IMG/VR virus record: IMGVR_UViG_3300038393_001290
Location: 1-55,802 of that record
Length of the DNA stretch: 55,802 nucleotides
Origin: a virus
Reading direction: 5' to 3' (one strand)
Below the pieces are notes generated by a model that was not told where the DNA came from, searched no databases, and saw only the letters and a list, made by a program, of their open reading frames with translations. Shown one piece after another: positions 4,415 to 37,111 of the stretch (positions are counted from its first letter, which is position 1; every line of letters starts with the position of its first letter). A program made the position numbers and the translations under genes.

Positions 4415-4696
4415 GTGGCGAACATCACCGTTTTTGAATTCTTCGCGGCCCCGAATGCTATCGGCGACGTCATCTGGCCGGCGGACGTTGTGACTACGAC
4501 CACGACCGCATCCACCATCAACCTGAGCGCCAACACTCGAGCGTTCATCGTCACGGCGGACGCCGATTGTCGCGCCATCGTGAACGCAAGCGGGGTTAGC
4601 ACGGCGGCGGGCGTTTCGACCTTGCCCGTCCTCTCGGCGGCGCCCAACCAATTCACCATCGCCCCGGCGAGCGGCCAATCCCTCAAGTTCGCTTAA
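4415..4696 (+). CDS. Hypothetical S/T/A-rich 93-aa protein
   Basis: GTG start 6 nt after AAGGGA; VVTTTTTASTINLSANT and GVSTAAGVSTLPVLS tracts; no recognised domain. Confidence 0.55.
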   Translation: MANITVFEFFAAPNAIGDVIWPADVVTTTTTASTINLSANTRAFIVTADADCRAIVNASGVSTAAGVSTLPVLSAAPNQFTIAPASGQSLKFA

Positions 4697-4708: not shown

Positions 4709-6304
4709 ATGAGCAGATCCACAGACCGACGCCGGGCCGCGGCGGCCCTGGCGACTGGAAGCGCCGTGGCCGCTGCTGGCGTCATTCGCTCGCGGGACCG
4801 CCGCGCGCGGATGATAGCGGCGGCGGTGATGCCGATGTTTCCGCGCAGCGTCGTCTTCATGGGCGACAGCCGGATTCAAGACGGCACGCGCTACTGGAAG
4901 AATGCCTTGTCTTCCGACTGGAAGGGGCTTCCCATCGGCTCGGGGTTCTGCGGGCCTGCCATTACGGCCGACTTCACTGATGGGCTACTGGAATTCCGCG
5001 CCTCCGACAGGTCGCTACGTTGGACCGCGTCGGGCGACACGGCCGGGGGCTGGGCGCAGATCACCCAAGCTGGGTGGGCGCAGCTTGAAAGCGCCACCGC
5101 CAACAAGCACCTGCGCGTCGGCGTGAAGAACCTGACGGGCTTTCCGGTGTCGGACCAGAGCGTGACTGTGTCGGGCTCCAGCTCGATGAACTTCGGCTGG
5201 AACGCGGTTGGCATTTGCAATCGGGCCATGAACCTCTTGCGCTGGCTTTGCCCCAGCCCGGTGTCGCTCGGCATCGGTGGCAGCACGACAGCCGACGTTA
5301 TTGAGCAACTCGCCTACTGTCAGGCCCAGGCCTCCGGCCTTGGCTGGGACATCGTCATGGTGTCCACGAACGACGTGACCGCGAGCGTGGCCGCGGCAAC
5401 CGTCACGGCCAACCTGCAAGCGATCTACGACGCGCGCCGGGCGCTGGGGCGCAAGCTGGTCATTGTCGAGAACACCGCCCGTTGGGGGGTGAATACCTCC
5501 ACCCCGCTCACCGCCGGGCAGATCGCCATCTTCGACGCCGTGCGGGCCTTCAACCAGACCTACGCCGCCCAGCACGATTGCGTCTATGTGGACAGCTATC
5601 TGCTGACCTACGACAGCGGCTTTTCGGATCGGCGGCCAGCCGCGGGGATGCTCCGCGACACGGTTCATCCGACCGACAACGGCTGCCAGATCATCGCCGC
5701 AGAACTCGTCCGGCTGCTCAAGCGGCGCACAGGGCCGGGACGTTTCCGAACGAGCGCCGATAGCAACACCTTCGCCAACGGCCTCCTGAATGGGACCGGC
5801 GGTACGCTGGGAACGGGCGCCAGCGGTCAGGTCGCGACGGGGTGGACCGTGGGTCGAGCGACTGGCACGGATGGAACCGCGACGTGCTCGGTGATCGATC
5901 GAACGGACGGCGGCGCGGGCAAGATGCAGCGTATCCAGTGCGCCAACACGACCGCCGGCTGGATGGAATTCACCGCCACGGCTTCGGGTGTCACGTTGGC
6001 GGCGCTCGGCCTGGCGGTGGGCGATACGGTCTATTACGAGATCGAGTACGAGGTGACGAGCCCGGTCGCCTTGCAGAACATCGCCGCGCAGGCATTCTTC
6101 ACCGGCGCGAGCCCGACCACGGCGCTGACCTGCAACGTCGAGACCTCCAACGTCTTCCTGGCGGAGGCGGGGACGATGCGAACCCCGCCGGCCAAGATAC
6201 CGGCGGGGACCACAAACGTGCGGCCGACCAACTACCTGAAGTTCGGCGCCAACGGCTCGGCTGACGTGAAGTTCGGCGTTTGCCGCATCGTCAAGGCCGC
6301 TTAA
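4709..6304 (+). CDS. SGNH/GDSL hydrolase-fold protein with Tat-like signal and C-terminal beta-rich (CBM-like) domain
   Basis: Blocks VVFMGDSR (I), IGGSTTAD (II), VSTNDV (III), DTVHPTD (V); N-terminal DRRRAAAALATGSAVAAAG resembles a twin-arginine signal. Confidence 0.75.
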   Translation: MSRSTDRRRAAAALATGSAVAAAGVIRSRDRRARMIAAAVMPMFPRSVVFMGDSRIQDGTRYWKNALSSDWKGLPIGSGFCGPAITADFTDGLLEFRASDRSLRWTASGDTAGGWAQITQAGWAQLESATANKHLRVGVKNLTGFPVSDQSVTVSGSSSMNFGWNAVGICNRAMNLLRWLCPSPVSLGIGGSTTADVIEQLAYCQAQASGLGWDIVMVSTNDVTASVAAATVTANLQAIYDARRALGRKLVIVENTARWGVNTSTPLTAGQIAIFDAVRAFNQTYAAQHDCVYVDSYLLTYDSGFSDRRPAAGMLRDTVHPTDNGCQIIAAELVRLLKRRTGPGRFRTSADSNTFANGLLNGTGGTLGTGASGQVATGWTVGRATGTDGTATCSVIDRTDGGAGKMQRIQCANTTAGWMEFTATASGVTLAALGLAVGDTVYYEIEYEVTSPVALQNIAAQAFFTGASPTTALTCNVETSNVFLAEAGTMRTPPAKIPAGTTNVRPTNYLKFGANGSADVKFGVCRIVKAA

Positions 6305-6366
6305 GCGCCGCAGTTCCGATCCGGGCGGGGGAATGATAGCGTCACGTCCTGGTGGGCGGGGGCGTG

Positions 6367-7317
6367 ATGGTTGAAGTGGGGATTGAGACCGCTCGTGAGA
6401 AGCTGAATTCGATCCAGCTTCTCCGGGCGCTGGCGGCTTTGGCAGTCGTGGCCGATCACACGCTTCTCGTCATCGACCGCTGGGCGGGCGCAGCCTGGAT
6501 GGCCCCTCTTGCCCGAGCCATGGGAGCTGGTGGCGTCTACCTGTTCTTCGTCATCTCCGGCTTGATAATGCTGCACACGTCGGGGCGGGAGTTCGGCCAG
6601 CCGGGCGGGTGGCGGCGATTTCTGACAAGGCGGCTGGAACGGATTGTGCCGCTCTACTGGCTCGTGACGGGAACGCGCGTGGCGGGGAGGGTGGTTCTTG
6701 GACGCCGCCTAGACTGGCCGCTGATCGCAAGCTCGCTCCTGTTCTTCCCCCACCTCAACGATGGGAAGATGCGCCCACTAATCGGCATGGGTTGGACCCT
6801 GAACTACGAGATGCTGTTCTATGTCTTGTTTGCGGTGGCCCTGTTGCTGCCGCGCCGGATCGGTTTGGCCGCGCTGTTCGGATCTTTCGGAGTCCTGGCC
6901 GTGGCTGGGCTGGCAATCAACCCAACCCTGGCCGCGGCGGTGACGCCGGTCCAGTTCTGGACGGCTCCAATCATCCTGCTGTTCGTGGCGGGCGTGGCGA
7001 TCGGGCTGATGCGGGAGCGGATCGCGCCGCTCCTGCGCTGGAACCCGGAGAACTGGGGGCTTCTCGGCCGGCTGGCGTTGCTGCTGGGGAACGCCTCTTA
7101 TAGCATCTACCTCTGGCAGGGGCTCGCCTCGGCGATTGTGACTAAGGCCTGGATGATGACCGTGGGGCCGCAGTTCGCACCCGTCTACTTCGTTGCCATG
7201 CTTGCGGGAGCTGCGGCGCTTGGCGTCGCGTCCTATTGGTTCTTTGAGCGTCCGGTGGCGGCGTTCTTCAGGTCGCGCCGCCGAATTGCCGCCAGCTCAG
7301 CGCTAGCGCCAGCCTGA
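6367..7317 (+). CDS. Acyltransferase-3 family integral membrane O-acyltransferase (OatA/OafA/Oac type)
   Basis: LNSIQLLRALAALAVVADH signature followed by roughly ten hydrophobic segments; GTG 6352 is an alternative start. Confidence 0.8.
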   Translation: MVEVGIETAREKLNSIQLLRALAALAVVADHTLLVIDRWAGAAWMAPLARAMGAGGVYLFFVISGLIMLHTSGREFGQPGGWRRFLTRRLERIVPLYWLVTGTRVAGRVVLGRRLDWPLIASSLLFFPHLNDGKMRPLIGMGWTLNYEMLFYVLFAVALLLPRRIGLAALFGSFGVLAVAGLAINPTLAAAVTPVQFWTAPIILLFVAGVAIGLMRERIAPLLRWNPENWGLLGRLALLLGNASYSIYLWQGLASAIVTKAWMMTVGPQFAPVYFVAMLAGAAALGVASYWFFERPVAAFFRSRRRIAASSALAPA

Positions 7318-7709: not shown

Positions 7710-8054
7710 ATGACCACGCTTCTCCCGCCCGGAACCCTGCCAGAGACCACGCGACGGCTGCTGAACAGCATCCTAGCGACGTTCGGGGTGAATCTGCTGG
7801 ACGTAACGGCGACCTATGATCCGCCGAGCTTGGCGGCGGGAGCCGTGGCGACCATCCAGACGGTGACAGTGACGGGCGCTGTGTTGGGCGACTTCGCCAA
7901 GGCCTCGTTCAGCAACGACCTACAGGGCGTCCGGATCAACGCCTGGGTGAGTGGGGCGAACGCGGTGAAGTTCCAGCTCCAGAACGTCACAGGCGGAACT
8001 ATCGACCTGGCGTCTGGGACGGTGCGGGTGAGGGTGGAGCGGGCTTCTCCGTAG
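7710..8054 (+). CDS. Hypothetical beta-rich 114-aa protein (possible virion decoration)
   Basis: ATYDPPSLAAGAVATIQTVTVTGAVLGD...VKFQLQNVTGGTIDL; no recognised domain. Confidence 0.6.
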   Translation: MTTLLPPGTLPETTRRLLNSILATFGVNLLDVTATYDPPSLAAGAVATIQTVTVTGAVLGDFAKASFSNDLQGVRINAWVSGANAVKFQLQNVTGGTIDLASGTVRVRVERASP

Positions 8055-8762: not shown

Positions 8763-9337
8763 GCTTCATCCTGAAGCTGCTGTTGGGCGTCCAGTCGTAC
8801 CTCACGACGTGGCGATTCAACCCAATCGACAAGAACACTGACGTCACGCTCTCGGCCGACCATCGGACGATCTCGCTCAGCGTCTCCAGCTCCTTCCCGC
8901 TCGGTGCGCGCGCCAACGGCTATCCGGTGACTCCAGGCAAATGGTACGTCGAGATGACGGCTGTGGCCGTTGCCGGGGCCACGGATAGCGTTGGGGTCGG
9001 CGACCTCACTCAATCGACCGGGATCACCGTGGGGTCGGGCGCTGGCAGCTGCGGTTACAGTGCGGACGGAAGTATCCTGCTCAATGGAAGCTCCGTCGCA
9101 ACCTATGCGACCTTCACGACCGGGGATGTGATCAGCTTCGCAATCAACGCGACTTTGAACAAGATCTGGTTCGCCAAGAACGGCGTCTGGCAGAGCGGCA
9201 ATCCCGCCACGGGAACTGGCGGGATCAGCCTCACGGCCTTGACCTACTATCCGATGGCCGTGATGAACACCGGCGGCTCATGGTCCATTCCGCTGACGCC
9301 GACTTATCCCGCGCCCGGCGGCTTCACTGTCCGATAG
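8759..9337 (+). CDS. SPRY/B30.2 (concanavalin-like) domain protein
   Basis: GKWYVEMTAV...VGVGD...GYSADGSILLNG...GDVISFAIN...IWFAKNGVW; ATGA overlap with the upstream stop. Confidence 0.65.
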   Translation: MSFILKLLLGVQSYLTTWRFNPIDKNTDVTLSADHRTISLSVSSSFPLGARANGYPVTPGKWYVEMTAVAVAGATDSVGVGDLTQSTGITVGSGAGSCGYSADGSILLNGSSVATYATFTTGDVISFAINATLNKIWFAKNGVWQSGNPATGTGGISLTALTYYPMAVMNTGGSWSIPLTPTYPAPGGFTVR

Positions 9338-10034
9338 CTGCGCTGATCTCGGCGAACGGCGGGAGCTCGCCATGCTTGCGGATCGCAACCAGGGTGCTGG
9401 TGATCTGCTCGATGGTAACGGTCCCATAAATCGCGGTGGCCGCGACGAGTTCGTGGATCATCTGCGATAGCGGGATGCCGCCGTCCTTCAGCGAGGCCGC
9501 CGGGTGGAAATCCGGCCAGTAGGACCAACCCCAGTCCTCAATCACATAGATTCCGCCGACTGCGAGCCGTGGAAAGAGGATATCGAAGCAGCGCGTCGTG
9601 TAGCCGTAGTTGTGCGAGGCGTCGTCTATGATGAGGTCCGCCGGTCGATCTCCGAAGGCGCGCAGGACGATCTCGGGCAGCTTGGCCGGGTCGTCCTGCG
9701 AGACGCCGAAATGAAGGCGCATCCGCGTGGTGTAGCCGAGCCGGTCGATGTGGTGGCCGATGGCCGGATTTCCGCGCGCCCAGTCTATGCCGAGGATGGC
9801 GGCGCTTGGGAACATATCCGCCAACATGAGCGCCGATCCGCCCTGATGGACACCGACCTCGATGATCCGGTGCGGGTCAGGGCAGAGGCGTGCATATTCG
9901 CGGACGAGCGAGCCGGGCTTCAGAATGACGATCTCGTTTTCAGTCGTCTTGTGCGCGGCGAAGTCGCTCGTGACATAGCGCACCGGAACGCCTCCGAGGA
10001 AGCCTTCTGCGTCCATATCTCGCGCTTGCTGCAT
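9324..10034 (-). CDS. Class I SAM-dependent methyltransferase (CmcI / sugar O-methyltransferase-like)
   Basis: IIEVGVHQGGSALMLA (SAM motif I-like) and DLIIDDASHNYGYT...GGIYVIEDW; antisense to the surrounding late genes. Confidence 0.6.
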   Translation of the reverse strand: MQQARDMDAEGFLGGVPVRYVTSDFAAHKTTENEIVILKPGSLVREYARLCPDPHRIIEVGVHQGGSALMLADMFPSAAILGIDWARGNPAIGHHIDRLGYTTRMRLHFGVSQDDPAKLPEIVLRAFGDRPADLIIDDASHNYGYTTRCFDILFPRLAVGGIYVIEDWGWSYWPDFHPAASLKDGGIPLSQMIHELVAATAIYGTVTIEQITSTLVAIRKHGELPPFAEISAAIGQ

Positions 10035-12557: not shown

Positions 12558-13366
12558 ATGGCCTCTCCCGGCCTTTCCGAAATCGTCACGACCACGCTGC
12601 GCAACCGTAGCGGCGTGATCGCTGACAACATGAGCAAGAACAACGCGCTGTTGTTCCGGCTCAACAAGCGTGGTCGCGTCAAACCGCTTTCGGGCGGTCG
12701 GACGATCGTGCGCGAGCTGAGCTACGCCGAGAACTCGACGTTCCAGCGTTACTCGGGCTACGAGATCCTGAACACTTCGCCCAGCGACGTGATCAGCGCG
12801 GCCGAGTTCAACTGGAAGCAAGCTTCCGTCGCCGTCACCATGTCGGGTCTGGAGCAATACCAGAACTCCGGCGAAGACGCTCTGCTGGACCTCCTCGAAG
12901 CCCGCATCGACGTGGCCGAGAAGACCATGCAGAACAACCTGTCGTCCGACATGTACTCGGACGGCACGGCGTCGAGCGGCAAGCAGATCGGCGGCCTTCA
13001 GCTCCTCGTGGCTGACGACCCGACGACCGGCACTGTCGGCGGCATCAACCGGGCCACCTACACCTTCTGGCGCAACCAGAAGTACCAGGCGACCTCGGAT
13101 GGCGGCTCGGCGGCTTCTGCGACCAACATCCAGAAGTACATGAACGCGCTGTATCAGAAGTGCACGCGTCAGACCGACCGTCCGGACCTGATCGTCGCGG
13201 ATACGAACTACTACAACTTCTACCTGAACAGCCTGCAAGCTATCCAGCGGATCACCTCCGACGAGATGGCTCAGGCCGGCTTCCAGTCGCTCAAGTACAT
13301 GGGCGCGGATGTGGTGTTCGACGGCGGGGTGGGCGGCGCTTGCCCGTCCAACCACCTCTACATGCT
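12558..13366 (+). CDS. Major capsid protein, exon 1 (codons 1-269 plus 2 nt)
   Basis: Position after the scaffold gene. The uninterrupted ORF runs 10 more codons into the insert and stops (…HLYMLKDSANHTVH*); joining to 14132 restores a 323-aa ORF. Confidence 0.75.
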
Positions 13367-14131
13367 TAAGGACTCTGCGAACCACACGGTTCACTGAGTC
13401 AGGGCCAGCTAAGGACTAGAGAGAGAACCGCACGTGTTTCAGCTCAGTGATACGACGAGCAAGGTCTTCGCGGTAAGCGAAGATTTCGTCGCGCTGCGGG
13501 TGGACCGCGTGATGGCAACCGAGCTTGTGCTTCCATTCGTCAATGGATCTCTGGAGTTCCAGCGCAAGTTCGGCCTCATCTCGTTTGACGACCAAGTACG
13601 GAACAACGCGACGAAGGAAAGCGGCGGCCTTCTGGCTGGCGCAGTACCAGAGGAATTGGTCGCGGTGCTTCGGATTGCGCCGGCTGTGCGGGTTGACATT
13701 GAGCGACCCGCCGTAGGTGTTGTGCAGGCTCCGGATAACGGGCGCGTGCGACATGCCGATGGCGAGAAGGATTTGGTAGCGCGTGTGGATGCTGTTGGGC
13801 TTGGCCCACTTGCTGACGCGCACCCAGCCCTCTCCATCGAACAGGCCGGCGGCGTAGCGGTCGTCAAGCGTGATGGTCACTCTCTGAGCCTTAGGCTGAA
13901 TGCTGGTGAATTCGGTGGAAGCCCCATGCCCGGCTCGAAAGAGCGCGGAAGGGTAACGCCGAGCCAAGCAGGCGACCGTGACGGGTCGCCGGGCGTGTGT
14001 AACGAGCAGGGACCAGCCCCGAAAGGGAAGGCGTGCTCTGAACTCCGTAGGAATACGGAGAGGTCGGCAGAAATGACCGGCCCGGCGCAGCAAGTATCAT
14101 TCGATGATTCTACTGCGCAGGTAACAGATTG
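13367..14131 (+). mobile_element. Intervening sequence in the capsid gene; group I intron-like, with an antisense homing-endonuclease gene
   Basis: Exon ends in U and the insert ends in G. There are multiple perfect hairpins (13371-13400, 13932-13965, 13971-13990, 14043-14060 with a GGAA loop, 14085-14118). Stem 13409-13423/13880-13894 encloses the endonuclease ORF. Confidence 0.6.
13416..13880 (-). CDS. LAGLIDADG homing endonuclease (single-motif, 154 aa, GTG start)
   Basis: YAAGLFDGEGWVRVSKW... LAGLIDADG motif near the N-terminus; size and PYLVVKRDEAELALEL region fit I-CreI-type enzymes; AAGG precedes GTG 13880. Confidence 0.8.
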   Translation of the reverse strand: MTITLDDRYAAGLFDGEGWVRVSKWAKPNSIHTRYQILLAIGMSHAPVIRSLHNTYGGSLNVNPHSRRNPKHRDQFLWYCASQKAAAFLRRVVPYLVVKRDEAELALELQRSIDEWKHKLGCHHAVHPQRDEIFAYREDLARRITELKHVRFSL

Positions 14132-14294
14132 CAACACCGACTACATCTTCTGGCAGCCCCATCGGGACCGCAACATGGTCCCGCTGGATCGGGTCAACTC
14201 GATCAACCAGGACGCCTTGGTCCAGCTCATCATCTGGATGGGCAACATGACCGTCAGCAACGCTCAGCTGCAGGGCGTCCTCTTCCAGACCTAA
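14132..14294 (+). CDS. Major capsid protein, exon 2 (last 54 codons)
   Basis: (L)NTDYIFWQPHRDRNMVPLDRVNSINQDALVQLIIWMGNMTVSNAQLQGVLFQT has no start codon or SD of its own and is in frame with exon 1 after removal of 765 nt. Confidence 0.7.
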
Positions 14295-14304
14295 CCGGCC
14301 TGGG

Positions 14305-14337
14305 GCTCCGGGGCCTTCGGGCCTCGGGGCTTGTTTC
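14305..14337 (+). terminator. Intrinsic terminator after the capsid gene
   Basis: 11-bp GC-rich stem (GCTCCGGGGCC/GGCCTCGGGGC) with TTCG loop, followed by TTGTTTC. Confidence 0.6.
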
Positions 14338-14360: not shown

Positions 14361-14651
14361 ATGGCTGCTTCTACCACGGTCTTTTCGACCACTCCGCTCG
14401 TGGGGCTCGCCCTGGGAGCCACCGGGACCTCGACGCCTGCCGTCGCGGCCCTGACCCGGTGCGCCGGCAACGATGGCCGGACGTACATTTACGGTAAGGC
14501 GTCCGAGGCCCTGACCTCGACCGCCACCTGCAAGATCGGTGCGGCGGGCTCTGTGTCCGACGACTCCGGTTCGGCTGGCTGGATTGCCAACGTGCCTGGC
14601 GGCCTCACGGCTGGCCAGTACGGCTGGTTCAAGCGCTCGTCGCTCGCCTAA
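14361..14651 (+). CDS. Hypothetical S/T/G-rich 96-aa protein after the capsid gene (possible decoration protein)
   Basis: ATG lies 10 nt after GGAG; MAASTTVFSTTPLVGLALGATGTSTP...; position suggests a head accessory role. Confidence 0.55.
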   Translation: MAASTTVFSTTPLVGLALGATGTSTPAVAALTRCAGNDGRTYIYGKASEALTSTATCKIGAAGSVSDDSGSAGWIANVPGGLTAGQYGWFKRSSLA

Positions 14652-14677
14652 CCGCGACCAGTACCAAGCGTAGGGGA

Positions 14678-14709
14678 GGGGGCGGTCTTTCGGGGCCGTC
14701 CCCTTCTTC
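14678..14709 (+). terminator. Intrinsic terminator
   Basis: GGGGGCGG/CCGTCCCC stem (one G-U pair), 10-nt loop, then TTCTTCA; immediately followed by promoter copy 7. Confidence 0.5.
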
Positions 14710-14713
14710 ATGC

Positions 14714-14749
14714 GCGCTCCACTGAGAAGGGGTCTGGCGGTCGCACGAT
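14714..14749 (+). promoter_or_regulatory. Late promoter-like element, copy 7
   Basis: GCGCTCCA-CTGAGA-16 nt-CACGAT; leader with GGGGAGG SD before ATG 14781. Confidence 0.6.
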
Positions 14750-14780
14750 GCTGTCTCAGCCTGGGGAGGCGAGAGAGAGC

Positions 14781-14966
14781 ATGAGCCAGTTTCCCGACTA
14801 CGCGGCGAACGCCGAAAGCGCGGCCGAGGCGCGCCAGATCATCAACCGATGCTTCGCCGATCCCGGCAGCGACGACGCCCATTGGGCGCGAGCTGCGGCG
14901 GCGGTCGCGATCCATGGCGGCGCGACGCTCGAGGAGGCGGTGGCGGCCGCCGTGGGTGGCGAATGA
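14781..14966 (+). CDS. Hypothetical 61-aa protein
   Basis: ATG preceded by GGGGAGGCGAGAGAGAG; stop overlaps the next start. Confidence 0.5.
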   Translation: MSQFPDYAANAESAAEARQIINRCFADPGSDDAHWARAAAAVAIHGGATLEEAVAAAVGGE

Positions 14967-15388
14967 GCGCCCCCGTCCGAATGGTCATCAAAGAGCCGAC
15001 CTTCCGCATGGTCCCGGCTCTCGACCAGTACAAGCTCAACGCCCACGGCCGGCTGGCGTGGCTGCACCGCCTGCTTTGGCGAGCCCTGGCCAAGATGGGC
15101 GCGCTGAAAAGCGGCATCGAGGAAAAGGTCACGTACAAGACCTACACCATCGACGCTGACCGCGTGATTGAGCGGGTGATGGAGGCGCAAGGCCGACTGT
15201 ATCGCGCCACCGGGCCCGGGCCTCGGAAAATCCTGATCGGCCCCGCCGAGGTGGCCGAACTGATGCAGGACGCAAGCCTGCAGGACTTCTCCTACGCGCC
15301 CGATCCGGTGCGGTTCGAGGGGCAACGTCAGTTCCGCGGAATGACTGTCGAGATCATCCCGCACATGCAAGGGGTGTTGGTACGGTGA
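14963..15388 (+). CDS. Hypothetical 141-aa protein
   Basis: ATGA overlap upstream and GTGA overlap downstream; no recognised domain. Confidence 0.6.
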   Translation: MSAPVRMVIKEPTFRMVPALDQYKLNAHGRLAWLHRLLWRALAKMGALKSGIEEKVTYKTYTIDADRVIERVMEAQGRLYRATGPGPRKILIGPAEVAELMQDASLQDFSYAPDPVRFEGQRQFRGMTVEIIPHMQGVLVR

Positions 15389-15585
15389 GCCGCTACGTCC
15401 TGAGGCACGCGGAGAGCCGCCGCTACCTGCACGCAAGCACACAGCGGCGCAAACCCCTCCTCACGGAGGAGTTGGAGGAGGCCAAGGTCTTTCAGGCCAC
15501 TCGCCCCTATGTCTCGGGGCTGGGGAGGGGGCTTGACGGCTTCGAATGGGTGGCCGTGCGGCTGGTGCTTGGCGAGGCGGTCTGA
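15385..15585 (+). CDS. Hypothetical 66-aa protein (GTG start)
   Basis: Translationally coupled at both ends. Confidence 0.5.
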   Translation: MSRYVLRHAESRRYLHASTQRRKPLLTEELEEAKVFQATRPYVSGLGRGLDGFEWVAVRLVLGEAV

Positions 15586-17153
15586 TGGGCGGCTCCATCC
15601 ACCCCGCCGCCGCTCAGGCCCTCGCCGCAGCCGTGGCCCCCCGCCGCCGGGTCAACTTCGTCATGGTCTGGACGGGCACCAAGTACGGCCCGGAATATCC
15701 GGCGATCCTTCAGAATATGATCGCCCGCAATGCCTCCAATCTGGAGGAGGATTGCGCGTGGTGGGCCATCACCGACCGGCCGGACGAGCTGCCGGCGGGT
15801 GTCTATCCCATCGAGGCCGATCCGACGCTTCCGACGTGGTGGCAGAAGGTGCGGCTGTTCTCGCCAGACATGCCGTGGGACCGCGGCGACCGCTGTGTCT
15901 ACTTCGACCTCGACGTGGCGATCACCGGCCGCCTGGAAGACCTCATCGAGCGCAAGGGGATCATTCAGGACTGGCACTGGCCCATGCGGAACAGCTCCGT
16001 GATGGTCTGGGACCACGGCGAGCATGTCCGGATCTGGACCGACTTCGCGCACGACCTGATCGACCGTCCCGCGCCGGACGACATCAAGCCGCTTCTGCCG
16101 AAGGGCGAGGTCAACGCCGGGGATCAGCATTGGATTTCGGAGTGCGCGCCCGACTGGCCGGCGTTCCCCGCCGACTGGTTCCGCTCCTATCGCGACTGTC
16201 ACGCTTGGCCGCCGAACGAGTGCAAGGCGGTCATATTCCACGGCGCGGTCAAGCCGGATCAGGTGACGGACGGCTGGGTTCCGAATGTCTGGAAGGTCGG
16301 CGGCTTCACGTCCCTCCCCGAGTTCAAGGGCGTCAACACCTCCGAAGACGCCCGGCTCGAAAACGTCCGCATCAACTCCGCCCGCGACCTCGATTGGTTC
16401 ACCGGCTTCAAGGACGAAGGCCGAACCTGCGTCATCGCCTGCGGCGCACCTTCGATGAAGGACTACGTTCAGCAGCTCAAGCGCCACCGGGCCAAGGGCG
16501 ATCGCATCGTCTCCGTGAACAACGCCTGGCGCTTCCTGCATCAGCGCGGGATCACGCCCGACGTCAACGTGATGCTGGATGCCCGGCCGGAGAACGCCGC
16601 GTTCCTCGACGGCGCGCCGAAGTCCATGCGGCTGATGCTCGCCAGCCAGTGCCATCCGAGCGTGTTCGACAAGGCGCTCGAGCAGGGGCTTGAGGTCGTG
16701 GTTTGGCACAATGGCTGGGATACCGGGAACGACAAGCTGCGGGAAATCCTCGACCCGTGGTGGGATGGGCCGAACCAGAGGCCGTGCATCCTCGTGCCTG
16801 GCGGCTCGACGGTGGGCCTGCGGTCCCTGTGGCTGGCGACCTATAGCGGCTTCCGGACGATCCACCTCTACGGATGTGATTCCAGCTACGCCGACGACGG
16901 CACACACCACGCCTACGCCCAGCCGCTGAACGACCACGAAACTGTCCTTGACGTGGTGATGGGAGCGAAGCGCTACCGCTGCGCGCCGTGGATGGTCAGG
17001 CAGGCGTCGGAATTTCAGCAGAGCTGGAAAGACCTCCGCGAGTACGAGGAGGAGCCCGGCAAAACTGCGCCGGTCACGCTGCACGTCCACGGCCGCGGGC
17101 TCGTGCCCGACGTCGCCAAGCAGCTTCGGGCCGAGGAAAGGGGCGTGGCGTGA
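15585..17153 (+). CDS. Fusion protein: GT-A/DxD glycosyltransferase-like N-domain + MptE-like (DUF115, Maf-type) C-domain
   Basis: WWQKVRLFSPD and VYFDLDVAITG (DxD) in the N-terminal half. CVIACGAPSMKD...VNNAW...DARPEN...HLYGCDSSY in the C-terminal half resembles motility-accessory-factor glycosyltransferases. Confidence 0.6.
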   Translation: MGGSIHPAAAQALAAAVAPRRRVNFVMVWTGTKYGPEYPAILQNMIARNASNLEEDCAWWAITDRPDELPAGVYPIEADPTLPTWWQKVRLFSPDMPWDRGDRCVYFDLDVAITGRLEDLIERKGIIQDWHWPMRNSSVMVWDHGEHVRIWTDFAHDLIDRPAPDDIKPLLPKGEVNAGDQHWISECAPDWPAFPADWFRSYRDCHAWPPNECKAVIFHGAVKPDQVTDGWVPNVWKVGGFTSLPEFKGVNTSEDARLENVRINSARDLDWFTGFKDEGRTCVIACGAPSMKDYVQQLKRHRAKGDRIVSVNNAWRFLHQRGITPDVNVMLDARPENAAFLDGAPKSMRLMLASQCHPSVFDKALEQGLEVVVWHNGWDTGNDKLREILDPWWDGPNQRPCILVPGGSTVGLRSLWLATYSGFRTIHLYGCDSSYADDGTHHAYAQPLNDHETVLDVVMGAKRYRCAPWMVRQASEFQQSWKDLREYEEEPGKTAPVTLHVHGRGLVPDVAKQLRAEERGVA

Positions 17154-17326
17154 GCGAACCCCTGCGCATCCCCTACATCATGGCGGCCGAGATGGGATCG
17201 TTCGCGCTCGCCGCGATGCGCGACCAGATGAAAGAGACCGTCGAGCGCGAGACCGGACAGCCCCACGTCTGGCGAACCTGCATCAACATGGACGCGATCG
17301 AGCTTGTCCCCGAGGACGGCCAATGA
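17150..17326 (+). CDS. Hypothetical 58-aa protein (GTG start)
   Basis: GTGA overlap upstream, ATGA overlap downstream. Confidence 0.45.
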   Translation: MSEPLRIPYIMAAEMGSFALAAMRDQMKETVERETGQPHVWRTCINMDAIELVPEDGQ

Positions 17327-17979
17327 CCGCGCCCGTTCTCGCCTCATGGGATGGCTGGTGGTGGCCAGCCTCCGACGAACGCGCCCGCCCGGTCCTGACG
17401 CGGGAAGTCGGCCCGGCCGTGGAATGGCTGCTGAGCCACGTCCCGGGACGGGAGCTGATCGTCCAGGCTGGCGGAAACGTGGGGCTCTTCCCGCTAGCGC
17501 TGGCCGACCACTTCGCGACGGTTGTTACGGCCGAGCCTGATCCTGCCAACTTTCACTGCCTGATCAAGAATCTGTCCGAGCGGCCGACCCAAGCCGGCTT
17601 CGAAGCCCATTGCGTGGCGTTCAGTGACGGCCACGGCTGGGGCGACATCGTAGAGGCCGAGCCGGGCAACTGCGGCGCCCATCGGATGGCCTACCGGCCC
17701 GCAATGCAGCCGGGGCCGGTGCGCGTCTTGCCGATCGATGCGCTCCACCTCTCGGCATGTGACGCCATCTGGCTGGATTGCGAGGGCTCCGAGCTCTTCG
17801 CGCTCATCGGCGCGGCCGACACTATCGAGCGCTTCAGCCCCACAATCTGCATCGAGGACAAGGGCCATCACCGCTCGTTCGGCATCCCGGACGGCGAGCT
17901 TCAGCGCTGGCTCTCAGCGCATGGGTATTCCGAGGTGGCGCGCCTGGGCAACGACAAGGTCTATAGGAGATACGCGTGA
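17323..17979 (+). CDS. FkbM-family SAM-dependent methyltransferase
   Basis: IVQAGGNVGLFPLALADHFATVVTAEPDPANFHCLIKN fits the Methyltransf_21/FkbM pattern. Confidence 0.7.
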   Translation: MTAPVLASWDGWWWPASDERARPVLTREVGPAVEWLLSHVPGRELIVQAGGNVGLFPLALADHFATVVTAEPDPANFHCLIKNLSERPTQAGFEAHCVAFSDGHGWGDIVEAEPGNCGAHRMAYRPAMQPGPVRVLPIDALHLSACDAIWLDCEGSELFALIGAADTIERFSPTICIEDKGHHRSFGIPDGELQRWLSAHGYSEVARLGNDKVYRRYA

Positions 17980-18434
17980 GGTATTACCTCGACACCGAGT
18001 TCAACGGTTTCGGCGGCGAGCTGATCAGTCTCGCGCTAGTGCGGGAGGATGGTTACAGCCTCTACGTGATCTATCGGCTGCCGGATGAAATCGAGCCGTG
18101 GGTTGCGGAAAACGTCATCCCGATCCTACACGAAGACCGCTGCCTCAATATCGCGATGCAGATAAGCCCGCCGACCGGCGCTAGGTTCATCGCCGACTTC
18201 TTGGCGGGCGACCCCGACCCGGTGATCATCACCGATTGGCCGGATGACATCCGCTACTTCTGCCAAGCCGTGATCGTCGGCCCCGGCCAGATGGTCAACA
18301 TTCCCGGCCTCAAGTTCGAAATGCACCGCGTGGACGCCTACCCGACCACGCTACCCGGCGCTGTCCAGCACAACGCGTGGTGGGACGCCATGGCCCTCCG
18401 TCACCTCTTCCAAGCCCAGAAGGTCGCCGCATGA
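17976..18434 (+). CDS. DEDD-type 3'-5' exonuclease (Rv2179c-like)
   Basis: MRYYLDTEFNGFGGELISLALV (ExoI D-x-E motif at the extreme N-terminus), about 150 aa. Confidence 0.65.
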   Translation: MRYYLDTEFNGFGGELISLALVREDGYSLYVIYRLPDEIEPWVAENVIPILHEDRCLNIAMQISPPTGARFIADFLAGDPDPVIITDWPDDIRYFCQAVIVGPGQMVNIPGLKFEMHRVDAYPTTLPGAVQHNAWWDAMALRHLFQAQKVAA

Positions 18435-19009
18435 GCGAAACTCCAGACTTCATCGCACCGAAAGCCGGCGGCGAGCGCGACACCGCCATGCCCCGCTTCT
18501 ACGTCAAGCCCGTCAAGAACGAGTTCAAGTCGAACGAGAAGGGCCATCCGGTCTTCGAGGACCGGGAATATGTGGAGATCCACATTCCCGGCGACCGCGG
18601 CACGGTGACGGATCGGCAAGTCCGACCAGAGGACCGCGACCGCTGGCCGCGCGAGTACGCCGCGTTCAAGGCTGGCCAGGAAGCCCCGGTGGAGGGAACT
18701 CCGCTCACTGAATGGCCGGCGATCACCCGCAGCCAGGCGGAAGAGCTGAAGTTCGGTCGCGTCTACACCGTGGAGCAGCTCGCGGCTTTGCCCGACGACC
18801 TCCTGAACCGCACCGTCAGCATGGGCGGCTTCTCGCTCAGGGAGAAGGCCAAGCGCTTCCTTGAGGCCGCTCAAGGCAATGCGCCGATGGAAAAGCTGGC
18901 CGCTGAGAACGAGGAGCAGCGAGCGACAATCAACGCGCTGCAGGAGCAGATGAAGGCCCTCACCGAACAGATGGCCAAGCTCTCCGCCCAGCAGGAGCCC
19001 AAGGCCTGA
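18431..19009 (+). CDS. Hypothetical 192-aa phage protein with C-terminal coiled coil
   Basis: ATGA overlap; PRFYVKPVKNEFKSNEKGHPVFEDREYVEIHIPGD...; no function recognised. Confidence 0.65.
   Translation: MSETPDFIAPKAGGERDTAMPRFYVKPVKNEFKSNEKGHPVFEDREYVEIHIPGDRGTVTDRQVRPEDRDRWPREYAAFKAGQEAPVEGTPLTEWPAITRSQAEELKFGRVYTVEQLAALPDDLLNRTVSMGGFSLREKAKRFLEAAQGNAPMEKLAAENEEQRATINALQEQMKALTEQMAKLSAQQEPKA
18895..18930 (+). promoter_or_regulatory. Possible 11th late promoter-like element (inside a CDS)
   Basis: GCTGGCCG-CTGAGA-16 nt-GACAAT with the same spacing, about 80 nt upstream of ATG 19011; weaker match in both boxes. Confidence 0.3.
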
Positions 19010-19379: not shown

Positions 19380-20093
19380 GTGTCGGTCCTGTCCATCGTT
19401 CAGAGCGCTACCGATCGACTGTCGCTGACGCGGCCTTCCACGGTCGTCACCTCGACGGACCTTCAGGTGCGCCAGTTGTTCGGGCTATTGCTCGAAGCGG
19501 GCAACGCGCTCGCCAAGCGCGGCGACATCGGCTGGCAGTCGCTCCAGAACGAGTGGCAGTTCGTGACGGTCGCGAATGAGATCCAGACCAACACCCCGAT
19601 CCCGCCCGACCTCGCCAAGTTCGTCCCCGACAGCTTCTATAACCGCACGCAACAGCGGAAAATCATCGGGCCGCTCACCCCACAGCAGTACCAGGAGCAG
19701 AACGCCCGACCGCAGCTCGTGGCGCCCTATCTCGCCTATCGCGAGCGGGCCGGGGCGTTCCTGATGAACCCCGTTCCCTCGGCTGGGGACACCATCGCCT
19801 ATGAGTACGTGTCGTCCTACTGGGCCAAGTCCAGCGCGGGCGTGGCCAAGGCGCAATTCACCTCCGATGACGACGGGACCTATCTGGACGAGGAACTGCT
19901 GATCCTCGACCTGAAGTGGCGCTGGAAGCAGGCCAAGGGCTTCGATTATGGAGAAGACCTAGCCACAGCCGAGCGGGAGATCGTCAAGGCGCTGGCCGGC
20001 GACGGGGGCTCAACGGCGCTCGACATCGGCGGCCCGCGCACGCTTGAGGATTTGACCCGGTACAATGTCCCTGAGGGATCGTTCGGCGTCTGA
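19380..20093 (+). CDS. Virion structural protein (putative adaptor / tail tubular A-like)
   Basis: 237 aa, GTG start; role inferred from position before a large tail-like protein only. Confidence 0.5.
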   Translation: MSVLSIVQSATDRLSLTRPSTVVTSTDLQVRQLFGLLLEAGNALAKRGDIGWQSLQNEWQFVTVANEIQTNTPIPPDLAKFVPDSFYNRTQQRKIIGPLTPQQYQEQNARPQLVAPYLAYRERAGAFLMNPVPSAGDTIAYEYVSSYWAKSSAGVAKAQFTSDDDGTYLDEELLILDLKWRWKQAKGFDYGEDLATAEREIVKALAGDGGSTALDIGGPRTLEDLTRYNVPEGSFGV

Positions 20094-24239: not shown

Positions 24240-25619
24240 TTGTCGAAAAAGGGCGGGAACGTTCAGCCGGTCGATCCGGTCAAGACGGCGCAGGCGCAGT
24301 CGCAGGCCAACATCGAGACGGCCCGCGAGCAGCAGAGATTGAACATGATCAATACGTCCGGCCCGCAAGGGGCCGTGACGTATCAGGCCGACCCGAACGC
24401 GCCCGGCGGCTACTCTCAGACGACCACGCTCTCTCCCGCCGAACAGGCCATCTACGACAAGAGCAAGGCTGCGGAGTCCGGCGCCCTCGACACGGCGACG
24501 ACGCAGCTCGGCCGGGTCAACGACGCGCTGGCCACGCCGCTTTCGACCGAGGGGCTTCCACAGCTTAGCGGCGGGGTCGATCTCTCCGGCCTGCATCCGG
24601 GCCAGATCCAGTCCAGCTTCAACACCGGCCAGCCGCTGCAATACAGCTTCAATCCGGGCCAAGCGGTGCTGGGTGACGTGGGGGGCGACCTCGGCGTTGC
24701 CCGTCAGCAAGCCATAGACGCGGTGTATGGCCAAGCGACCTCGCGCCTTGATCCCCGCTTTGCCCAGGACGAGAACGCCCTTCGCACCAAGCTCGCCAAC
24801 CAGGGCTTGAGCCAGAACGACACGGCCTATCAAACGGCCCTGCAGAACTTCCAGCAGGGCCGCAACGACGCCTACAATCAGGCGCAGTATTCGGCCATTG
24901 GAGCGGGCGAAGACGCGGCCACCGCGCTGTTCGGCCGTCAGGTCCAGCAAGGCCAGTTCCACAACCAGGCCGCCAACCAGCAGTACGCCCAGAACCAGGG
25001 TCAGGCGGCGTTCCACAACGCCACCGCCGGCCAGGACTTCGGGCAGAACCAAAGCGCGGCGCAGTTCGCCAACGCGGCGGAGGCTCAGCGCTTTGGCGAG
25101 GCGCAGAGCGCGGCGCAGACCGCGCTTCAGAACGCCCAACTACAGAACACCGCCCGGCAGCAAGGCTTGCAAGAGAGGGCGTACATTCAGAACACCCCGA
25201 TCAACCAGTTTACCGGCCTCTTGGGGCTCGGGCAGGTTGGGATGCCCCAAGGCATCCAGTACAGCCCAACGCAGGTTGCGCCGACCGATGTGCTCGGGGC
25301 CTACGCGCTCAACCAGCAAGGCCAGCTCGCCAACGCGCAGATGAAGCAGCAGGCCAATTCCGGCCTCATGGGCGGCCTGTTCTCGCTCGGCTCGGCCGCG
25401 ATGATGGCCTCCGACCGCCGGCTGAAGACCGATGTTCACCTGATCCGCCGCCGCAAGGATGGCGTGGGCGTCTACCGCTTCCGGTACATCGGCAGCGACG
25501 TTCCGCACATCGGCGTCATGGCCCAGGAGCTGAAGAAGGTCCGGCCGGACCTCGTGGTCAAGCGCGCCGATGGGTTCCTGGCGGTCGATTACAGCGCCCT
25601 TGATCTGGAGGCTGCGTGA
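24240..25619 (+). CDS. Tail fibre/spike-like protein with C-terminal peptidase S74 intramolecular chaperone domain
   Basis: Q/N/A-rich body; C-terminal SDRRLKTDVHLI...GVYRFRY...HIGVMAQEL...AVDYSAL is the S74 autoproteolytic chaperone signature. Confidence 0.75.
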   Translation: MSKKGGNVQPVDPVKTAQAQSQANIETAREQQRLNMINTSGPQGAVTYQADPNAPGGYSQTTTLSPAEQAIYDKSKAAESGALDTATTQLGRVNDALATPLSTEGLPQLSGGVDLSGLHPGQIQSSFNTGQPLQYSFNPGQAVLGDVGGDLGVARQQAIDAVYGQATSRLDPRFAQDENALRTKLANQGLSQNDTAYQTALQNFQQGRNDAYNQAQYSAIGAGEDAATALFGRQVQQGQFHNQAANQQYAQNQGQAAFHNATAGQDFGQNQSAAQFANAAEAQRFGEAQSAAQTALQNAQLQNTARQQGLQERAYIQNTPINQFTGLLGLGQVGMPQGIQYSPTQVAPTDVLGAYALNQQGQLANAQMKQQANSGLMGGLFSLGSAAMMASDRRLKTDVHLIRRRKDGVGVYRFRYIGSDVPHIGVMAQELKKVRPDLVVKRADGFLAVDYSALDLEAA

Positions 25620-35629: not shown

Positions 35630-35831
35630 CCCTTTACACAGACCCCGCTAAGTCATTGATTTTTCGTGGGCGTCCTGGCCGTCGCTTTACATCCAGGTCG
35701 TTGATTTTGCATCAGAACTACCCGTTTACAAAACCGCTGCTCTACCAGCTGAGCTAATCCGGCGCGTTGATTTTACTAGCGTTTTCACACACCGCCGTTA
35801 GGCGCTTTACACTTTGATGAGGCCCTTTACA
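35630..35831. other. Candidate attP region
   Basis: Adjacent to int. Contains five (C/G)TTTACA copies (35632, 35685, 35724, 35805, 35825), three TTGATTTT copies (35656, 35701, 35767) and a tRNA-like 5' half. Confidence 0.6.
35724..35763 (-). tRNA. 5' half of a tRNA-Thr(UGU)-like sequence (positions 1-40 only; not a functional gene)
   Basis: GCCGGAT-TA-GCTC-AGCTGGTA-GAGC-A-GCGGT-TTTGTAA-AC gives acceptor, D-arm and anticodon stem/loop. The 3' anticodon-stem strand and the T-arm are absent. Confidence 0.55.
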
Positions 35832-36915: not shown

Positions 36916-37111
36916 CAGGCCCCGAGAGGTTGGAGTTCGCCACTGTAAGCTTTGCGCCGCGCAAACCGTCAAGGTAGTCGTCCAGGGCCTTGCGGTCCCA
37001 CCTGACCCGCCCATCGAGCACGACGCGGCCAGCCTGGACCCGCTTCATCGCCGCGAGCGGCAATGACAGGTAGGCGGCGGCGGCGCGCTCGGTGAGCAGG
37101 CGGGGCGTCAT
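36860..37111 (-). CDS. xis: Excisionase / AlpA-type HTH protein
   Basis: LLTERAAAAYLSLPLAAMKR...RVRWDRKALDDYLD; immediately upstream of and overlapping int. Confidence 0.65.
   Translation of the reverse strand: MTPRLLTERAAAAYLSLPLAAMKRVQAGRVVLDGRVRWDRKALDDYLDGLRGAKLTVANSNLSGPDAALAQFLADTQDAARRP

Follow-up and report, generated by a model that had tools for sequence, protein, structure and literature searches.

The DNA considered here, IMG/VR virus record IMGVR_UViG_3300038393_001290 (hereafter the window, the whole stretch of 55,802 nucleotides), carries within its head-gene block a slot that lies between the major capsid protein (MCP) gene and that of a conserved protein of about 194 aa. This slot holds a gene for a 522-aa protein, in which a GT8-type glycosyltransferase domain is fused to a domain of the PF01973/DUF115 family, and a gene for a methyltransferase of the FkbM family (Table 1). 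A sequence-only reading of the window had suggested that these enzymes, together with an adjacent exonuclease, might glycosylate virion proteins. The open reading frames (ORFs) on which it relied are present and show coding-type GC3 (GC at third codon positions) of 0.79-0.86. As judged from the sequence comparisons described below, the conserved system is real, and its proposed function in modifying the phage capsid is plausible.

The two-domain glycosyltransferase

An AlphaFold2 model of the 522-aa protein, made from 41 homologs (pLDDT 90), is divided into two domains by Foldseek searches against the PDB, which confirm both domains expected from the sequence-only reading, a GT-A glycosyltransferase (of GT8 type) and a Maf/MptE-like domain; the motifs quoted there for the two halves are invariant across the 41 homologs. 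The N-terminal half resembles GlyE (E=1e-8) and glycogenin (2e-6) as well as LgtC, LARGE1, XXYLT1 and UGGT, the E-values for glycogenin, LgtC, GlyE, LARGE1 and XXYLT1 ranging from 1e-8 to 2e-4. Residues 51-237 match PHROG 1962, 'glycosyltransferase' (E=8e-13). Within this half, K88, D108-L-D110, N136, N177/G179/D180, G220 and K223 are invariant and Q181 and H219 nearly so (H219 in at least 90% of the homologs). A profile built from the homologs aligns with glycogenin in such a way that DLD falls on DAD and NSS on NSG; the H-G-x-x-KP motif is also aligned, with its His shifted by two positions, and the GDQ motif is present but out of register in the HMMER alignment. The Pfam Glyco_transf_8 model is not matched, and residues 1-260 have no Pfam match at E<0.1. 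The model and the motifs thus place the N-terminal domain in GT8 by fold and motifs, not by Pfam model. It shares the GT-A fold and the DxD, NS(S/G), GDQ and H-G-x-x-KP motifs with glycogenin, LgtC, Streptococcus pneumoniae GlyE, LARGE1 and XXYLT1, among which glycogenin, GlyE and XXYLT1 act on proteins or protein-bound glycans. It differs from these enzymes in the missing Pfam match, in the displacement of the putative metal-binding His relative to glycogenin and in being fused to a second transferase domain.

The kinship of the protein is visible mainly at the level of profiles and models. A phmmer search of the single 522-aa sequence against the PDB returned nothing, only the profile search giving matches, and tblastn against 50,697 phage records returned four weak matches, all in the GT8 half. 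The DUF115 half has no matching PHROGs family and no tblastn match among these records, and no cultured phage in the set carries a GT8-DUF115 fusion. As a separate observation, the cultured myophage Mosig of Pelagibacter (MT647606.1) has, about 4 kb apart, genes for a protein homologous to the GT8-like half (29% identity, 124829-125509) and for an FkbM-like methyltransferase (24.5%, 129447-130010), possibly a distant analogue of the glycosyltransferase-methyltransferase pairing that does not include DUF115.

The C-terminal half matches the Pfam MptE-like model (PF01973) at residues 267-437 (E=1.2e-17, 64.6 bits against a cut-off of 34.6 bits), as do 30 of 30 diverse relatives. Its closest structural matches in the PDB are Maf (5mu5, E=9.6e-7), the MptE-type HPPK of Methanocaldococcus jannaschii (8sd5, 4e-6) and GT29 sialyltransferases. 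P289-S290, N312, D332, G430-x-D432 and H441-H442 are invariant among the 41 homologs, and the motifs GxPS, N, SQ, H, GxD and H.Y stay so down to 27% identity. In 5mu5, the residue aligned with the invariant D432 of GxD is the Asp of 'GVD'. A catalytic Asp (D247/D261) is reportedly needed for activity in Shewanella Maf-1/2, and D432 may correspond to it.

Since the Pfam family is named after MptE, the match to the M. jannaschii HPPK (TM score 0.57, 20% identity) is about equal to that to Maf, and the JGI label of the protein is only 'uncharacterized Rossmann fold enzyme', the domain might instead be an MptE-like kinase or diphosphokinase. By analogy with chain-terminating kinase-methyltransferase enzymes, it could then add a phosphate or methyl-phosphate cap to a sugar placed by the GT8 domain, or act on a small molecule; the frequent methyltransferase fusions described below would suit a phosphate-plus-methyl cap. 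Nonetheless, this appears unlikely. The 41-homolog profile matches Maf 5mu5 over the whole domain (residues 275-428, hmmsearch E=2.2e-6), whereas it matches MptE over only about 50 residues (E=0.22). [quoted passage not shown] In addition, the GxD and HH motifs common to Maf are invariant, and no pterin or folate genes lie near the DUF115 gene, whose context is bacterial and phage. By these comparisons the DUF115 domain appears closer to Maf and the sialyltransferases than to the archaeal MptE kinase.

This kinship has its limits. The term 'Maf-type', which the sequence-only reading had used, is justified for the catalytic DUF115 domain and its fold, but the 522-aa protein is not a true Maf, because the flagellin-binding module, the flagellar context and nonulosonic-acid synthesis genes are missing. 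Indeed, it scores 18 bits against the NCBIfam PseD model, the cut-off of which is 670. With the Mafs of Magnetospirillum (5mu5), Campylobacter (PseD) and Clostridium botulinum (CbMaf) it has in common the PF01973/MAF_flag10 catalytic domain, the fold, the GxPS, GxD and HH motifs and a soluble, cytoplasmic nature, and FkbM-type methyltransferases are often found near maf genes, which they accompany in flagellin glycosylation islands (PMC5109656). However, the phage protein has neither the N-terminal Rossmann-like domain nor the C-terminal helical/TPR/GlfM acceptor-binding module of Mafs and is fused to GT8 instead, and its gene lies in a head-gene block, not in a flagellar or nonulosonic-acid biosynthesis island. 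Its neighbours encode the MCP, a decoration-like protein, an adaptor and a nozzle, and the window contains no NeuB/PseI-like or CMP-synthetase genes.

The O-glycosylation carried out by Maf enzymes is on Ser/Thr, and both CMP-Kdo and CMP-N-acetylneuraminic acid (CMP-Neu5Ac) can serve as donors (PMC11339370; CMP, cytidine monophosphate). The DUF115 enzymes characterised so far all have flagellins as their substrates (PMC11339370; bioRxiv 10.1101/2023.12.03.569772), and in the Caulobacterales, to which the host of this phage very probably belongs (see below), flagellins are normally glycosylated, Caulobacter making pseudaminic acid for this purpose (PMC7591256). It might therefore be supposed that the enzymes glycosylate a host protein (flagellin, pilin or S-layer) during infection, for example to disable motility or to block competitor phages that depend on the flagellum or pilus. 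Such a role seems quite unlikely, given that none of 30 diverse DUF115 homologs carries a TPR, chaperone-like or other recognisable flagellin-binding domain, that the gene is tied to head genes and not to host-takeover or early genes, and that homologs occur in contigs binned to metagenome-assembled genomes (MAGs) of very different bacteria.

Methyltransferases associated with the DUF115 domain

The gene that follows encodes an S-adenosylmethionine (SAM)-dependent methyltransferase whose FkbM identity, proposed in the sequence-only reading, passes both curated thresholds (PF05050, 39.7 bits vs 22.7; TIGR01444, 61.8 vs 37.7) and is accompanied by a match to PHROG 8156 (E=7.5e-24). Among 82 related loci (see below) it adjoins the glycosyltransferase gene in 33, and in locus P0085 the two are fused (FkbM-GT8-DUF115). 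Other fusions join DUF115 to a class I methyltransferase (L050, L055) or GT8-DUF115 to Methyltransf_24 (L083). When 30 diverse DUF115 ORFs are compared, a methyltransferase is fused in 18 (Methyltransf_24 in 11, Methyltransf_25/23/12/11 in about four, FkbM in three), and Pfam finds no other type of fused domain. Separate fusions to three methyltransferase families suggest that the DUF115 reaction and methylation share one product. On this comparative basis it can be argued that DUF115 and a methyltransferase constitute the minimal core of the system, with GT8 as a frequent add-on.

Neither the 522-aa enzyme nor the FkbM protein has a transmembrane segment, and both would thus act in the cytoplasm, the site of capsid assembly. 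In the window, 170 nt separate the two genes, possibly bridged by a 48-aa ORF that shares an ATGA overlap with the FkbM gene, and in locus L001 the two genes overlap directly. The sequence-only reading had described all genes of the slot as translationally coupled. This is true of the other junctions, which overlap by 1-4 nt, but not of the glycosyltransferase-FkbM junction, unless the small ORF serves as a bridge. It should be noted that the window contains another methyltransferase gene, of the Methyltransf_24 family, on the minus strand (9324-10034), antisense to the structural operon; a minus-strand methyltransferase gene also lies upstream in the Phenylobacterium soli locus L001 (L001 128-940). 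The minus-strand gene of the window may also serve carbohydrate modification, the same Pfam family being the one fused to DUF115 in 11 of the 30 relatives.

A combination of glycosyltransferase and methyltransferase might also recall the hypermodification of phage DNA, in which glycosyltransferases are known to take part (bioRxiv 10.1101/2023.12.21.572611; PMC13326640) and by which bases would be glycosylated and methylated against restriction. The window shows no gene for a hydroxymethylase, TET/5mYOX, C5-methyltransferase or DNA polymerase and none for nucleotide metabolism, the phage is temperate and its replication initiator is lambda-like, and the methyltransferase families involved are not DNA methyltransferases. 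DNA hypermodification was rejected, since hydroxymethyl-pyrimidine genes are missing, and is to be considered very improbable.

Conservation of the slot among related phages

Neighbourhoods were drawn from an exact-protein look-up, an MCP-seeded scan of IMG/VR, a glycosyltransferase-seeded scan of GTDB genomes and a DUF115-seeded scan of IMG/VR; the set of 82 loci is non-redundant and was chosen by MCP similarity. All neighbourhoods have a common gene order: scaffold, MCP, a small decoration-like gene, the variable slot, the ~194-aa protein, a protein of about 120 aa, adaptor and nozzle. The slot contains GT8, DUF115 and FkbM in 33 of the 82 loci, GT8 and DUF115 in eight, DUF115 alone in six and nothing in 35, so that a DUF115 gene lies between the MCP and ~194-aa genes in 47. 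The full cassette is found at MCP identities of 59-90%, and among the sampled loci almost every one with an identity of about 70% or more carries it. The DUF115-seeded scan yielded 225 IMG/VR contigs, and this MCP family is upstream in all 69 new loci for which upstream sequence is available. The position in the slot is kept even at 31-38% identity, in MAGs of Magnetospirillum, Gammaproteobacteria, Terriglobales and Rhodopila, as well as in a prophage integrated in Caulobacter sp. UC70_42; the MAG assignments of the DUF115 loci thus include other bacterial classes and one other phylum.

The identity of DUF115 to the copy in the window correlates with that of the MCP (rho 0.72), the adaptor (0.84) and the nozzle (0.84), and its mean is as high as, or higher than, that of the adaptor and nozzle. 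Such co-divergence indicates that DUF115 belongs to the virion module and has been passed on vertically with it. From this distribution, the cassette appears to lack the traits of a lysogenic-conversion moron: it is not sporadic, it tracks the virion genes and its products have no transmembrane segments. Serotype-converting modules (Acyl_transf_3 O-acetylases or those of Gtr type) have a sporadic distribution, and their products, which are membrane proteins, act beyond the cytoplasm. Like the cassette, these modules are carbohydrate-modifying genes of temperate phages, and the window itself contains an Acyl_transf_3 gene, whereas the GT8-DUF115/FkbM pair is soluble, conserved in the lineage and co-diverging with the virion genes.

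That Acyl_transf_3 gene encodes a 321-aa membrane O-acetyltransferase and is preceded by a gene for a 531-aa protein with an SGNH/GDSL hydrolase domain. Neither has a counterpart in any of the related loci searched (86 loci and seven genome loci), and by sequence the pair looks like a moron for O-acetylation of host polysaccharide, of the serotype-conversion type, inside the structural block. The sequence-only reading had argued for a virion target from the position of the cassette in a structural operon. The comparison across a large phage lineage makes this argument much stronger, the cassette being conserved, syntenic and co-diverging with virion genes, but position alone is a weak argument in this genome, because the structural block also houses a membrane Acyl_transf_3 protein, for which cytoplasmic virions are out of reach. 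Synteny, co-divergence, the soluble enzymes and the adjacent decoration-like protein, taken together, would fit a virion target better than lysogenic conversion.

The main rival explanation is that the module modifies a glycoconjugate of the host envelope (lipopolysaccharide (LPS) core, O-antigen or capsule precursor) at the cytoplasmic face of the membrane. The receptor of this phage or of others would thereby be altered, leading to superinfection exclusion or receptor masking, and the module would join the Acyl_transf_3/SGNH O-acetylation genes, which illustrate that cell-directed genes can sit among head genes. Characterised bacterial GT8 enzymes such as LgtC, one of the Foldseek matches, act on lipooligosaccharide; the weak match of a DUF115-only relative to WaaZ points in the same direction, the phage is temperate (integrase at 35827-37014), and the cassette is dispensable, being absent from 35 of the 82 relatives. 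An envelope target is therefore possible, though less likely than a virion target in view of the comparative evidence. The MCP-adjacent position is fixed across phages that, by MAG assignment, belong to several bacterial classes and one other phylum with differing envelopes, and the divergence of DUF115 follows that of virion proteins. The pattern expected of a moron is seen instead in the O-acetyltransferase/SGNH pair, which, unlike the cassette, occurs in this phage only. Moreover, no promoter-like site was found from which the prophage could express the cassette, the latter lying behind two terminator-like hairpins and about 18 kb from the integrase gene.

Neighbouring genes and features

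Table 1. Position of the cassette, the neighbouring features and two further genes of the structural block in the window
Feature	Position	Strand	Remarks
531-aa SGNH/GDSL hydrolase-domain protein	4709-6304		Between portal and scaffold genes
321-aa membrane Acyl_transf_3 O-acetyltransferase	6352-7317		Between portal and scaffold genes; many hydrophobic segments
MCP gene	12558-14294	+	Interrupted
MCP 5' part, aa 1-270	12558..13368	+	PHROG 9953 major head protein, E=9e-105, profile positions 5-274 of 329
764-bp insertion	13369..14132	none	Splits the MCP gene; contains stop codons
MCP 3' part, last 53 aa	14133..14294	+	Same frame; tblastn 87% identity to P. soli phage MCP aa 271-323
GC-rich hairpin with U-rich tail	14304..14331	+	Terminator-like attenuator just past the MCP stop; 12-bp stem, about -25 kcal/mol
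96-aa S/T-rich (25%) protein	14361..14651	+	Probable capsid decoration protein; between the two hairpins
Strong hairpin, then UUCUUC	14668..14715	+	Terminator-like attenuator after the decoration gene
Three small overlapping ORFs (72, 141, 66 aa)	14748..15585	+	No family matches; variable between relatives
522-aa protein	15585-17153	+	GT8-type GT-A half fused to PF01973/DUF115 half
N-terminal half	15585..16334	+	GT8-type retaining GT-A glycosyltransferase; DxD is D108-L-D110
C-terminal half	16335..17153	+	PF01973/DUF115; Maf- and sialyltransferase-like fold
Possible 48-aa ORF	17180..17326	+	Bridges glycosyltransferase and FkbM genes; ATGA overlap with FkbM
FkbM-family SAM-dependent methyltransferase	17323..17979	+	PF05050, E=7e-10
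DEDD-like 3'-5' exonuclease	17976..18434	+	PHROG 2259 'RNase H', E=8e-38; overlaps both neighbours by 4 nt
Conserved ~194-aa protein	18431..19009	+	PHROG 20268; downstream edge of the variable slot; in at least 80 loci
SU10-type adaptor	19380-20093		Downstream of the slot

According to the sequence-only reading, a copy of a repeated promoter ('promoter copy 7') drives the genes of the slot. No repeated promoter-like motif is found upstream; searches for direct repeats and, with mismatches allowed, for motifs, a scan with the sigma-70 consensus and one for recurring 12-mers returned only GC-rich background. Instead, two terminator-like hairpins flank the gene that follows the MCP. The second is the stronger (-39 kcal/mol, z=-3.6), and none of 200 shuffled sequences folds as well. 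With the enzymes encoded downstream of two presumably highly expressed genes and of these hairpins, the structural proteins would be made in bulk and the enzymes would be scarce.

The product of the gene between the hairpins, the 96-aa protein, has 81 homologs with identities of 53-97%, in which S4, S53, T56, S64, S66 and S71 are invariant. Its AlphaFold2 model gives weak Foldseek matches mainly to capsid decoration or cement proteins (HFTV1, the base of phi29 gp8.5, TW1, SHP/gpD, T1 and YSD1), along with non-viral chains (MoeA, GH97 glycosidases), and it matches a Brucella phage protein at E=2e-5. It is a probable decoration protein of the capsid and the leading candidate acceptor. It is found in 32 of the 33 loci with the full cassette and in none of the 35 without a cassette. 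This co-occurrence was rejected as independent evidence, because every sampled relative that was inspected has a decoration-like gene after the MCP and the tblastn signal partly reflects divergence of these genes. In the relatives they encode 91-257 aa with a shared ...Y.Y.KA...YGW... pattern (for example L050 10985-11479, L055 10307-10801, L033 11015-11509, L005 20916-21689 and L062 6008-6283). The 96-aa form accompanies the full GT8-DUF115-FkbM cassette, and longer forms, of about 164 aa, are found in loci with DUF115-methyltransferase fusions as well as in loci that lack DUF115. Another S/T-rich ORF (93 aa, 4415-4696), also named as a possible acceptor in the sequence-only reading, was considered as a paralog of the 96-aa protein; it is not paralogous and recurs in three loci only.

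Of the three small ORFs that precede the glycosyltransferase gene, and that are joined to each other and to it by overlapping stop and start codons, only that of 141 aa recurs (L002, L013). At the other end of the slot, the exonuclease gene, which the sequence-only reading had counted as part of the system, matches PHROG 2259 strongly, and its similarity to DEDD enzymes is weak: it reaches 16.6 bits against RNase AS (cut-off 200) and E=0.002-0.007 against Rv2179c, over the first 50 residues including the D-x-E motif. No homolog is present in 86 related loci and seven genome loci, the corresponding position being empty or occupied by an unrelated ORF of 55-85 aa. As far as can be judged from this distribution, the exonuclease is a phage-specific insertion outside the conserved module, and it appears to behave as a moron, as do the SGNH and Acyl_transf_3 proteins.

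The MCP gene is itself interrupted. The minus strand of the insertion carries an ORF for an I-MsoI-like LAGLIDADG homing endonuclease (~13416-13877; I-MsoI 3fd2, E=6e-6), and its 3' segment is strongly structured on the plus strand (z=-3.7). No Rfam intron family matches the insertion, even at E up to 10, and the related loci retrieved through MCP similarity are all free of it. At the homologous exon junction, CTT|AAC, the exact point is ambiguous by 2 nt. A canonical group I intron is unsupported and disfavoured, because the homologous junction would leave no 3'-terminal G. The insertion is context and lies outside the glycosylation module.

The phage and its host

The window is a complete genome in circular assembly, as indicated by an identical terminal repeat of 127 nt (1-127 and 55676-55802), with a unit of about 55.7 kb and a GC content of 62-68%; the terminase gene spans the contig ends, and the ORF at 31-1299 covers only its 3' part. 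The genome encodes terminase, portal, MCP (PHROG 9953), an SU10-type adaptor, a nozzle-like protein, fibres with an endosialidase-chaperone domain, a ParB protein, a lambda-O-like initiator and the tyrosine integrase, from which it follows that the phage is temperate. By gene content it can be classed as a temperate, podovirus-like phage of the SU10-adaptor type. Megablast of the region against the 50,697 phage records found no relative at the DNA level. When portal proteins are compared, the closest relatives in culture are Bradyrhizobium phage ppBjS10J-1 (42%), a Rhizobium phage, the Brucella Tb group and Myxococcus Mx8. An intact MCP encoded on a 102-kb contig of the Phenylobacterium soli assembly (QFYQ01000003 of GCA_003254475.1) shares 90% identity with that of the window, and a homologous prophage is integrated in the complete chromosome of Caulobacter sp. 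UC70_42, at about 4.067-4.080 Mb. These two matches make it very probable that the host is a member of the Caulobacterales.

Two further ORFs are of interest with respect to the host surface. That at 7710-8054 (114 aa) resembles only the C-terminal end of large tail-fibre/lyase proteins (PHROG 23388), and its L001 counterpart carries Pfam K1-lyase_C; the 459-aa fibre protein (24240-25619) has an endosialidase intramolecular-chaperone domain (Peptidase_S74). Their domain content suggests receptor-binding proteins directed at polysaccharide.

Proposed function

The cassette can be regarded as a glycan-building module of the head-gene block in a large and for the most part uncultured lineage of temperate podophages of the SU10-adaptor type, whose hosts include Caulobacterales and, as MAG assignments suggest, further Gram-negative bacteria. 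In the reading that we favour, and that we hold with about even confidence, the module serves late O-glycosylation in the cytoplasm, and capping by methylation, of a protein on the capsid surface. The cassette would be transcribed late, by read-through past the two attenuating hairpins, so that the enzymes would be made in catalytic amounts and the MCP and decoration protein in bulk. The soluble two-domain enzyme would draw on nucleotide sugars of the host, since the phage has no genes for their synthesis. Its DUF115 domain would transfer a sugar of the ulosonic-acid type from a CMP-activated donor. Candidate donors are CMP-Kdo and, in Caulobacter, also CMP-pseudaminic acid; to judge from established LPS biology, no ulosonic donor other than CMP-Kdo would be expected in all Gram-negative hosts, and hence in all those sampled. 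The GT8 domain would add an alpha-linked hexose from a uridine diphosphate (UDP)-sugar, with Mn2+ held by DxD, and O-methylation by FkbM would cap the product. Most likely, the acceptor is a Ser/Thr on an exposed part of the 96-aa decoration-like protein or of the MCP, and the heads of the progeny would bear a coat of small methylated glycans. Of this scheme, the sequence comparisons and models show what the domains are, that their catalytic motifs are intact, that the enzymes are soluble, that synteny is kept, that DUF115 diverges along with virion genes and that it has been fused to methyltransferases repeatedly, whereas the donors, the sequence of reactions, the acceptor and the timing are inferred.

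Several observations weigh against this proposal. No dedicated acceptor-binding domain or adaptor is recognisable, although known Mafs need one (bioRxiv 10.1101/2023.12.03.569772). LgtC-like GT8 enzymes and WaaZ act on LPS or lipooligosaccharide cores, and the same toolkit could thus target LPS. The 35 of 82 relatives with an empty slot, among them the cultured phage ppBjS10J-1, imply that the module is dispensable for assembly. No MCP column is Ser/Thr in all DUF115-positive phages yet absent in DUF115-negative ones (43 vs 34); at the best column, S184, the S/T frequency is 0.77 as against 0.18, a comparison that is confounded by phylogeny. The fold matches of the decoration-like protein are weak (E 0.25-1 against the PDB), and the first of the two hairpins folds no better than shuffled sequence (z=-0.95).

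A more specific form of the proposal can be put forward only tentatively. It is possible that, in a widespread lineage of temperate podophages that infect Gram-negative bacteria, an enzyme of the Maf/sialyltransferase-like type has been turned from flagellin to the capsid of the phages themselves, and that their heads carry methyl-capped O-glycans of the ulosonic-acid type (Kdo- or pseudaminic-type) made from CMP-sugars of the host.

Relation to known systems and significance

To our knowledge, virion glycosylation by phage- or virus-encoded enzymes is known only from a few mycobacteriophages and giant algal viruses, in which it alters antibody recognition and surface chemistry. The closest parallel in architecture is A064R of PBCV-1, a protein of two glycosyltransferases and a methyltransferase that builds a capsid glycan (PMC9614988). 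It is likewise a virus-encoded, soluble, multi-domain protein combining a retaining DxD GT-A domain with a second glycosyltransferase and a methyltransferase, and P0085 and L083 are true triple fusions of the same kind. It differs in its eukaryotic host, its N-linked glycans, the unrelated family of its second glycosyltransferase and its class I methyltransferase; moreover, its function has been demonstrated by experiment, whereas that of the phage module is inferred. In mycobacteriophages Che8 and Rita the capsids are glycosylated, as outlined in PMC11256854 (citing Freeman 2023); according to that outline, glycosyltransferases of these phages are proposed or shown to glycosylate capsid proteins of temperate tailed phages, resulting in a glycan shield. 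These phages differ in their actinobacterial hosts and in the location of the glycosyltransferase genes, which are near the 3' end of the genome and not in the head block, and the outline reports no DUF115 enzyme. The sequence-only reading knew of no described phage system that uses a Maf-type enzyme in this way. Our literature search likewise found no paper that links DUF115/PF01973 to a phage structural module. Thus, virion glycosylation as such has already been described in phages and viruses, and it is the type of enzyme and the range of hosts that are new.

Should the more specific form of the proposal hold, no earlier case of sialic-acid-like virion glycosylation would be known from a phage, nor any earlier virion glycosylation system from phages with Gram-negative hosts, and the minimal core of the new system would be the DUF115-methyltransferase pair. 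If the module does glycosylate capsids, then, as it is present in hundreds of contigs, the trait would be a common one among phages of Gram-negative bacteria in the environment. An enzyme family that has hitherto been linked to the modification of flagellin alone would have been put to use on a second class of acceptor, probably by drawing on the CMP-ulosonic-acid pools of the host. This finding would bear on phage stability, adsorption and immune recognition, and also on glyco-engineering, a field in which Maf enzymes are already employed for sialylating designer proteins. The DUF115-methyltransferase fusions would provide a natural set for working out the chemistry. Moreover, the question can be tested in isolates, since integrated copies are found in Caulobacter sp. 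UC70_42, on a complete chromosome, and in Phenylobacterium soli, on the 102-kb contig.

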